Assembly: GCA_020721065.1 (NCBI GenBank)
Contig: DYNM01000012.1
Span: 15,842 to 79,841, forward strand
Reading direction: 5' to 3'
Length of the DNA stretch: 64,000 bases
Source of the DNA: Thiocystis violascens
GTDB taxonomy: Bacteria > Pseudomonadota > Gammaproteobacteria > Chromatiales > Chromatiaceae
The position numbers and the translations under genes are program-made. Under the pieces are notes generated by a model. It made no database searches. It was not told the DNA's origin and saw only the letters and a list, made by a program, of their open reading frames with translations. This document shows, piece after piece, positions 25,246 through 55,046 of this stretch; position 1 is the first letter of the stretch; each line of letters begins with the position of its first letter.

Positions 25246-25265
25246 TGTCAGTTCGATTGAAGATG

Positions 25266-25342
25266 TCGGTTGTCATTGAGTGATCAGTTGTCAGTGACAA
25301 CGCTGTGTTTGATTGACGACCGCTAACTGACCAGTGATCACT
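25266..25342. repeat. Heptamer (TCAGTTG-type) repeats in inverted arrangement
   Basis: AGTGATCAGTTGTCAGT (25279-25295) pairs 15/17 with ACTGACCAGTGATCACT (25326-25342). Confidence 0.65.
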
Positions 25343-25422
25343 TTATTTCAACTGCGTCATTCTTAAACTTTCGATTCAGTTGGATTCACTCCTCAGTGCC
25401 AACTGACCACTCATAGCAGCAC

Positions 25423-52521: not shown

Positions 52522-53074
52522 CGTTGTGTTCCAAAATGATGTTGAGATGAAAATCAGTTTACTGTCATGCAGCCGTTATGTTCAGCATGAGCAGTTACTG
52601 TCATTAATTTGATAGCATTAGTATACAGTATCAGTGCGTCACGGTGTTTTTAGTTAGCGTTATCATCCCAAGCGTTGGGATTATTTTTGAGGAGAAAATT
52701 GATCATGGCAGTTAAAAAAGCAACGTCGAATGCCGATAAAATCAACGGCACCAATGGCAACGATACCATCAATGGATTGGGTGGTAACGATACCCTGAGT
52801 GGTGCAGTTGGCAATGATTCATTGTTGGGCGGAATTGGTAAAGATAAACTCGATGGTGGAACGGGCAATGACACGCTGCTCGGTGGCATTGGCAATGACA
52901 ATCTGCTGGGCGGTTCTGGTGATGATAAATTAAATGGTGAGGCGGGTAACGATACGCTGGAAGGGAACACTGGCAAAGATATTTTAGATGGTGGCAGCGG
53001 TGATGATCGTTTAGTCGGTGGTGCAGGCAATGATATTTACAAAGTGGATAGCATCCGCGATAAAGTTGTTGAAA

Positions 53075-53193
53075 CTAGGAGTTACGCAGTTGGATTCCCA
53101 AGCTCCTGATTTTATTGAAACTTGGCTCATGCGGCGCACAAGCGCATTTTCATAAAATTCAGAGAGTTGCAGTTTCAACTGCGTAACTCCTAG
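53075..53193. mobile_element. 119-bp MITE with 18-bp perfect terminal inverted repeats and a 3-bp AAA target duplication
   Basis: CTAGGAGTTACGCAGTTG (53075-53092) and CAACTGCGTAACTCCTAG (53176-53193); AAA on both flanks; no coding capacity. Confidence 0.92.
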
Positions 53194-54572
53194 AAACTGA
53201 TAAAAGCAACAGCGTTGATACGGTGCAAAGTGCGGTGAATTATACGCTGCCGTTGTTAGTGGAACATCTTGAATTATTAAGCATGAGCAATATTAAAGGC
53301 GCAGGCAATGCGTTGAATAATCGCATCACCGGCAATGCTGGTGATAACGCGCTTGATGGTCTCGCTGGACAAGATACGCTTAACGGTGGCGATGGTGCCG
53401 ATACTTTGAATGGCGGCGCGGGTAATGATTCGCTCAGTGGTGGTGCGGGCGATGATATTTATATCGTGGGCAGCAGCGGTGATCGCGTGATTGAAAAAGA
53501 TGATGAAGGTGAGGATGAGATTCAAAGCAGCGTGAGTTTTACACTCGCAGATGCAGTGGAAATGTTGACGCTAACTGGCAGTAAAGCCGTAAATGGAATT
53601 GGTAACGAACTGGATAATTTGCTCAACGGTAATGCGTTGGCAAATCAACTCAGCGGTGAAGAAGGAAATGATACGTTGGTTGGCAATGCTGGCAATGATA
53701 CGCTGACTGGCGGGGCTGGCGATGATCAATTAGACGGCGGCGCTGGAAATGATACGGTTGTTTATGCCGGTAATTATGCGGATTATCAATTTACGCGTGA
53801 TGAAGAAGGCGATAGCTGGACGATTCAAGCGATTGATAATGATGAGGGCAGTGATAGTTTAACGGCGGTGGAGTTAGTTAAATTCGCAGACATTACAAAA
53901 AATGCGAATGAATTGGATATTGAGGACGGCGCAGAACATGACGCTCCCGTATTTATTTCTGCCAGTGTGAATGCCAATACGTTGCTGCTGAATTATGTCG
54001 ATGAGGATGTGCTTGATGTAGAACATTTACCCGCTATTGGCGCATTTCAGGTGATGACAAACGGAGTGGCAAATGCGGTGACGGCAGTTGCGATTAACGC
54101 CAATACCGTTGCGCTTACGTTGGCAAAATCGGTTACTGCCGAGCAAGTGGTGACGTTCACTTATAACGATCCAACGGTGGCTGATGATGTCAACGCGGTT
54201 CAAAATGAATTCGGCAATGACGCGGTGAGTTTGGCTGCCGTCGCCGCCGTTAATGAGACTGCGCCAATTGCGCCGACCATTCCAACTTATTCAATCACCG
54301 CTCCAGCAACGGCAGCAGAAGGTGCGACGGCGAATTTCACCGTTGCCACAACGAACGTCGCCAACGGCACTGCGCTGGCTTACACCTTAAGCGGTGTTGA
54401 TGCAGCGGATGTTGTTGGTGGTTTGACTGGTTTTGCGGTGGTTAATGGCAACGCAGCGACAATTCCGGTGGCGCTGGTAAATGATGTGCTCTTTAGCGAG
54501 AGCGACGTTTTGAATGTGACGCTCGCTATTGATCCAACGAAAACGGCGAGCGTTGCTGTTGTTGATACCACG

Positions 54573-54700
54573 CTGCCAGTTCCGACAATGCCCGAACCGT
54601 TGCCAGTTCCGACAATGCCCGAACCGCTGCCAGTTCCGACAATGCCCGAACCGTTGCCAGTTCCGACAATGCCCGAACCGTTGCCAGTTCCGACAATGCC
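54573..54700 (+). repeat. 27-bp coding tandem repeat (LPVPTMPEP) x4.7
   Basis: YTGCCAGTTCCGACAATGCCCGAACCG repeated four times plus a 20-bp partial copy, with no spacers. Confidence 0.95.
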
Positions 54701-55046
54701 GTCACCAATGCTGTTTGCTTATAGTCTAAGCAGTAGCGATGGTGTGATCAATTTAACTGGTCTTGCAGATGCTGCTGAGGTTAATACTGTGTTCGGTTCT
54801 GGAACGCTGATTTGGTTTTAATCATCAGCAATTGACTAACGTTACACAGATAGTTGTTAATACATTTGCGCGACGTTAGTCACTCAAAACATCAAAAGTA
54901 ATCATCGCTTTTTTAACCCCACTTGCGACGGTTTAGTTTTATTCCTTTGAAAATCTCGCCGCAATCAACTCGAACGCAGGTACCAGTTGACGGCTCTATC
55001 GCCGCTGCCTAAATTCCGTTCCTCACCGATCCTCGGAGCATTGCTC

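Follow-up and report, generated by a model that had tools for sequence, protein, structure and literature searches.

Bacterial MITEs such as Correia of Neisseria, RUP of Streptococcus pneumoniae and Nezha of cyanobacteria are elements of about 100-150 bp that possess TIRs and are bordered by a target duplication. They form hairpins, occur in many copies, contain no open reading frame of their own and are mobilised in trans, and they can interrupt or modulate genes. Among insertion sequences (IS), the classical IS701 type is 1.4-1.55 kb long and duplicates 4 bp of its target (De Palmenaer et al. 2008, PMC2266710). The genome paper of Chromatium okenii LaCa describes an S-layer, putative S-layer proteins exported by a T1SS and an enrichment of S-layer functions, and makes no mention of IS elements (PMC6374484). 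A literature search for Chromatium yielded no publication that deals with IS elements or with MITEs, nor one on the particular IS/MITE pair that is the subject of this report, and the pair is apparently undescribed for this genus.

The DNA analysed here (the window, a stretch of 64 kb that corresponds to positions 15842-79841 of contig C83) is part of a 3.06-Mb genome assembled in 113 contigs. The host is a species of Chromatium, a free-living, phototrophic purple sulfur bacterium that is a sister to C. okenii DSM 169, and the genome of the latter (NZ_NRRQ01) was used as the relative for comparison. It is very probable that a MITE with the ends of an IS701-family insertion sequence, mobilised in trans, has recently broken a gene for an RTX/SWM surface protein in this window. 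With its empty site, duplication, partner IS and sibling copies all documented, the case is a textbook-quality natural example of the probable knock-out of a surface-protein gene by a MITE, in a purple sulfur bacterium of ecological importance.

An RTX/SWM-repeat gene interrupted by a 117-bp element

The features of the locus, in window coordinates, are the following:

52675-53109, plus strand: upstream ORF, with 133 native codons from TTG 52675 and an 11-codon tail (RSYAVGFPSS) encoded by the MITE
52705-53075, plus strand: 5' part of the gene, from the ATG through the first GAAAC, with a HemolysinCabind match of 90 bits; aligns collinearly with the N-terminal part of the orthologue in DSM 169
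53071-53075, no strand: left target duplication GAAAC, 5 bp, present as a single GAAAC at the orthologous site of C. okenii DSM 169
53076-53192, plus strand: the MITE, 117 bp, non-coding, a long imperfect palindrome
53076-53092, plus strand: left TIR, TAGGAGTTACGCAGTTG, 17 bp, identical to each end of the IS701-family IS of Chromatium and to the left end of ISMesi2
53107-53109, plus strand: TGA within the MITE, a premature stop in frame with the upstream half of the gene
53176-53192, minus strand: right TIR, the perfect complement of the left TIR, which supplies a TAA that is in frame with the downstream half
53193-53197, no strand: right target duplication GAAAC, 5 bp
53198-54821, plus strand: 3' part of the gene, in a frame different from that of the 5' part, with RTX and SWM repeats and a conserved C-terminus
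53223-54821, plus strand: downstream ORF, with GTG 53223 as its earliest possible start and no obvious ribosome-binding site

When the flanks of the element are joined by script, they read ...GTTGTTGAAACTGATAAAAGC... and yield a single ORF of 664 aa from ATG 52705, with no further stop or frameshift. The C-terminus of the joined protein, ...VFGSGTLIWF, compares with ...VFGAESLIWF in the DSM 169 orthologue. A single RTX-repeat gene is thus both interrupted and frameshifted by the MITE, as an earlier note on this DNA had proposed. The junctions of the occupied site are GTTGTTGAAAC against TAGGAGTTACGC on the left and GCGTAACTCCTA against GAAACTGATAAA on the right.

Besides its HemolysinCabind repeats, the 664-aa protein contains a single SWM repeat and five repeats of MPEPLPVPT. 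The RTX nonapeptide repeats (PF00353) score 90 bits in the 5' half of the gene and 86.9 bits in the 3' half. With the RTX-toxin model NF033943, the cut-off of which is 1000, the scores are 80.7 and 56.7 bits and the matches are confined to the nonapeptide repeats; a pore-forming RTX toxin of the HlyA/LtxA/CyaA type was rejected, the score being far below the cut-off of this full-length model. This calcium-binding protein is presumably secreted or located at the surface. Signals for T1SS export are located at the C-terminus of the exported protein. Secretion by a T1SS and a role as an adhesin or S-layer protein are plausible, and the secretion system may be one encoded elsewhere in the genome: contig C76, unlinked to the interrupted gene, carries T1SS genes for a PrtD-type ABC protein (760.8 bits, cut-off 510) and an adjoining HlyD-family protein (394.2 bits, cut-off 208.65). 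The interrupted allele is most likely null, because it leaves an N-terminal fragment without a C-terminus and 532 C-terminal codons without the start region or a ribosome-binding site; loss of the protein would follow.

The five MPEPLPVPT repeats are encoded by tandem 27-bp repeats at window positions 54526-54729, in the 3' part of the gene. There are about 12 such repeats in the C. okenii orthologue P0001 and none in DSM 169, and both of these proteins have extra copies of a module of about 100 aa (PTYSITAPATAAEGATANF...) instead. The repeat content of this surface-protein gene differs strongly between strains.

The ends of the element were defined from all of its genomic copies. The 18-mer CTAGGAGTTACGCAGTTG has two sites in the 64-kb window, 53075-53092 on the plus strand and 53176-53193 on the minus strand, in mutually inverted orientation, versus an expectation of 0.03 matches in shuffled sequence. 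The earlier note had described these sites as perfect 18-bp TIRs. The repeat is indeed perfect and inverted, but the base that precedes TAGGAG differs among copies (C, T, A or G), and therefore the true TIR is the conserved 17-mer TAGGAGTTACGCAGTTG, the 18th base being part of GAAAC. Likewise, the duplicated AAA reported previously is only a portion of the 5-bp GAAAC, and the copies elsewhere that have perfect ends follow a 5-bp rule; the element itself is 117 bp (53076-53192) rather than 119 bp. The net insertion is 117 + 5 = 122 bp, and the previous calculation that removal of 122 bp restores one 664-aa frame was accurate. Duplication of TA or CTAG in the manner of IS630/IS5-like elements was considered and rejected: it would add 115 bp, would leave the frame unrestored, and conflicts with the flanks of other copies, which vary.

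The element forms an imperfect palindrome with arms of 59 nt that are 71% complementary; the folding energy of its single strand (RNA) is -53 kcal/mol (z = -8.4). There are stop codons in all three forward frames and no transposase gene within its 117 bp. A search of Rfam with the element identified no family (the top match, E = 0.47, lies outside it), and a scan for promoters and terminators picked up none inside it.

Copies of the element and a partner insertion sequence

Eight copies of the MITE are present in the genome, dispersed over seven to eight contigs. Four copies (on C83, C53, C69 and C75) are 100% identical across all 117 bp, and four diverged copies (on C71, C77, C29 and C86) have 72-76% identity to these. 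The C71 and C77 copies are identical to each other and the C29 copy is 95% identical to both; the C86 copy is further removed, its left end being degenerate and its flanks lacking a duplication. Six of the eight copies, including all four identical ones, are bordered by an exact 5-bp duplication of their own: GAAAC (C83), AAGAC (C53), TGTTT (C69), AACCG (C75), GTTTG (C71) and GAGCC (C77). The flanks of the C29 copy, AAAAC and ACAAC, are not an exact 5-bp duplication. The family is genus-wide, with further copies in DSM 169 and in two more Chromatium genomes. In DSM 169, the ends are within three mismatches in total at 12 of the 13 loci fetched, and exact 5-bp duplications are found at eight of the 13. 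The C29 copy is orthologous to a copy in DSM 169 (189 of 190 positions identical, flanks included), and therefore the MITE family is older than the insertion at 53076-53192. The hairpin is retained across subfamilies, with changes on both sides in 8 of 38 predicted pairs.

Two copies outside the window are located in or near other genes. The 115-bp copy at G000:C77:37562-37676, which belongs to a sister subfamily and has the duplication GAGCC, is at codon 194 of a 581-codon stop-to-stop ORF with a P-loop GTPase motif (LEKAGKSTFVNAWLG) that was judged by eye to be dynamin-like; here the MITE family would have broken a second gene. One of the four identical copies, G000:C69:34986-35102, with the duplication TGTTT, is about 30 nt upstream of the start codon of hfq, in the leader or promoter region, and could alter expression of Hfq.

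The 17-mer TAGGAGTTACGCAGTTG is also found at 39 contig termini of this genome, 35-40 nt from the contig ends and reading outward, with two types of interior sequence (18 of End A and 21 of End B). This is the pattern of a multi-copy IS that breaks the assembly, and it amounts to about 20 IS copies. The genome-wide search for the TIR that had been suggested as a check thus found both other copies of the MITE and an IS with matching ends. The assembled portion of the IS consists of its outer 50-55 nt at contig ends, and up to 125 nt at C49. One of the 39 contig ends that stop inside the IS is C83:1-53, 15.8 kb upstream of the start of the window.

Pairing of the sequences that flank End A and End B gave 14 pairs that are equal at exactly k = 5, versus 0-4 matches in controls at 20 offsets; three pairs were equal at k = 4, but there were no matches for k = 6 and k = 7. 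Therefore, the IS and the MITE make a duplication of equal length, 5 bp. The same pairing of IS ends gives 13-14 contig joins (for example C5-C112, C19-C97, C23-C57 and C64-C39), by which the assembly would be scaffolded.

A search of the assembled genome and the window for IS701 transposases found no transposase gene. Because this gene is absent from the assembly (collapsed or missing), the IS was rebuilt from overlapping contigs of DSM 169, which were joined. The rebuilt IS is 1,137 bp long, with perfect 17-bp TIRs and one ORF of 331 aa, the stop codon of which is within the right TIR. The 331-aa transposase scores 400.8 bits with NCBIfam NF049921 (IS701 family, cut-off 250). The closest annotated relative is an 'IS701-like element ISMesi2 family transposase' with 57.7% identity, and the Chromatium IS is probably unnamed, since the best matches to its transposase in a plasmid collection reach no more than about 59% identity. 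The only sequence that the MITE and the IS have in common is the 17-bp ends. Derivation of the MITE from the IS by internal deletion was considered and is not demonstrable, the similarity being confined to these ends.

A nested arrangement is found in DSM 169 at NZ_NRRQ01000035.1 4897-6117, where a second, oppositely oriented copy cuts an IS701-family copy at codon 104 and is itself interrupted by an IS630-like transposase gene. The single complete IS copy observed in a relative (G003:C38) has mismatched flanks and an internal TAG, and was of no help in confirming the duplication.

The earlier note had argued that the transposase must act in trans. This agrees with the absence of a transposase gene from the window and the assembly and with the presence in the genome of an IS with identical 17-bp ends, and the Chromatium IS701-family IS is the likely source of mobilisation. 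In the proposed course of events, an intact and active transposase in this strain, which would be the DDE transposase of the 1.1-kb IS701-family (ISMesi2-group) IS with its approximately 20 copies, would recognise in trans the exact 17-bp ends of the gene-less MITE. Cutting of the target with a 5-bp stagger and joining of the MITE would duplicate GAAAC. The 122 added bases shift the frame, so that translation from the N-terminus would halt at the TGA inside the MITE, and the 532 C-terminal codons lack a promoter-proximal start and ribosome-binding site.

A second and more abundant MITE family was observed, with elements of about 100-136 bp at about 25 sites genome-wide. It has a related end, TAGGAGTGACGCAGTTG, and an interior composed of runs of TCAGTTG/GTCAGTTG heptamers, and the flanks of seven copies point to a duplication of 4 bp that is shifted by one base. 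A decayed copy is located at window positions 25250-25366, with its right end, CAACTGCGTCATTCTTAA, at 25349-25366. This Chromatium lineage hosts a presumably active and expanding IS of the IS701/ISMesi2 type (about 20 copies) and at least two MITE families, which fragment its assemblies and create pseudogenes.

Empty sites, age of the insertion and alternative explanations

At the orthologous site of DSM 169, the two flanks abut with an overlap of five bases (...GATAAAGTTGTTGAAACCGATAAAAGC...), with a single GAAAC and a continuous ORF of 1,038 aa. Two other orthologues, P0001 and P0011, run through the site as VVETDK(S/T)(N/K)SVDT; one is a C. okenii protein (NCBI 'SwmB domain-containing protein') and one is from an ENA metagenome contig. 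Comparison with sister strains, another check that had been proposed, therefore shows orthologues without the 122 bp that are one gene and not two separate genes. A second public assembly, GCA_973788825.1, has the occupied site and is identical across 7.6 kb including the MITE.

A recent date for the insertion in this lineage, as first suggested from the sequence of the window, is supported because the four MITE copies are 100% identical, the TIRs and duplication are perfect, the gene is otherwise intact to its conserved C-terminus, and the site is empty in three orthologues. The identification of the element as a MITE likewise agrees with every defining feature that could be tested: its size, its TIRs, its duplication, its multiple copies, an IS with matching ends, and the empty site.

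There is a small likelihood that the insertion is a polymorphism of the population that is under selection, in which cells with the SWM/RTX protein off would evade a phage or predator for which this protein is the receptor, and hairpin-aided slippage between the 5-bp repeats would occasionally cause reversion. If so, MITE/IS701 activity would be a mechanism of surface variation in bloom-forming Chromatium. The fragmented genome, if it is a metagenome bin, could have a consensus sequence that hides an empty-site subpopulation.

A reversible on/off switch, as raised in the earlier note, would go further: precise excision by the transposase, or slippage at GAAAC, would restore the gene in part of the population. 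The element is a long hairpin of 117 nt between 5-bp direct repeats, and in precise excision of Tn5 and Tn10 a geometry of hairpin and direct repeats favours slippage that is independent of RecA. Both halves of the gene are intact, and reversion would regain function; this is equally explained by recent insertion, however. Possible phage protection by S-layer proteins, which is discussed in the C. okenii genome paper (PMC6374484), would also favour a switch. Against it, no empty allele with the flanks of this strain was found in the second assembly (occupied, and identical over the 7.6 kb), the genome collection or the JGI metagenome contigs; the exact empty junction GTTGTTGAAACTGATAAAAGC has no match in the JGI metagenome contigs, and among genome contigs it is found in DSM 169 only. 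The remaining copies of the family are in unrelated genes and intergenic sites, with no dedicated switch loci apparent. For DDE elements, precise excision is rare and not programmed, and cut-and-paste transposition normally leaves the target unrestored, which also counts against a switch. Taken together, these observations make a switch very unlikely.

It is extremely unlikely that the interruption is an assembly artefact or a minority variant, with a multi-copy 117-bp repeat threaded into an RTX gene that is really intact in the population. The genome is rich in repeats, and its 113 contigs break at every IS copy, but an artefact would not duplicate precisely the five bases, GAAAC, of which DSM 169 has one copy at its orthologous site. 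The same junctions are present in an independently assembled contig of 107 kb, and all other perfect copies obey the 5-bp duplication rule. The probability is negligible that the repeat is instead a REP/REPIN- or ERIC-like palindrome, dispersed through recombination or a RAYT-type enzyme, with ends that match those of an IS by coincidence. In favour of this, the interior forms a long hairpin that is conserved, including some compensatory changes (8/38 pairs), and is dissimilar to the interior of the IS. However, REP/REPIN elements are not known to make target duplications, whereas the copies with perfect ends carry exact 5-bp duplications equal in length to that of the IS, and the 17-bp end recurs unchanged at both IS ends and at the left end of ISMesi2 from a different phylum.

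Comparison with known systems

The IS and the MITE could both be registered as new; the mechanism by which the gene was broken is not new, and is an ordinary kind of mutation. Compared with Correia, RUP and Nezha, the Chromatium MITE has a different transposase family and different ends, with no regulatory role evident.

The nearest described relative of the IS is ISMesi2, for which plasmid pMESIL01 of Allomeiothermus silvanus (NC_014213.1) was the reference. The left end of ISMesi2 is the same as the 17-mer of the MITE, TAGGAGTTACGCAGTTG, and the right end differs from it by one base. The Chromatium IS is of the same size class as the ISMesi2 group (about 1.1 kb) and likewise has a single transposase ORF that ends in the right TIR, whereas the MITE has no transposase and has only the ends in common with these IS. 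Both the size of the Chromatium IS (1.1 kb) and its 5-bp duplication distinguish it from classical IS701, which is larger. A short target duplication, of 4-5 bp, is typical of the IS701 family.

The interrupted gene, like those for SwmA/SwmB of marine Synechococcus (PF13753, SWM_repeat), joins HemolysinCabind repeats with an SWM repeat. The Chromatium protein is much smaller than SwmB, the name of which is nonetheless carried by the C. okenii orthologue in its NCBI designation, 'SwmB domain-containing protein'.
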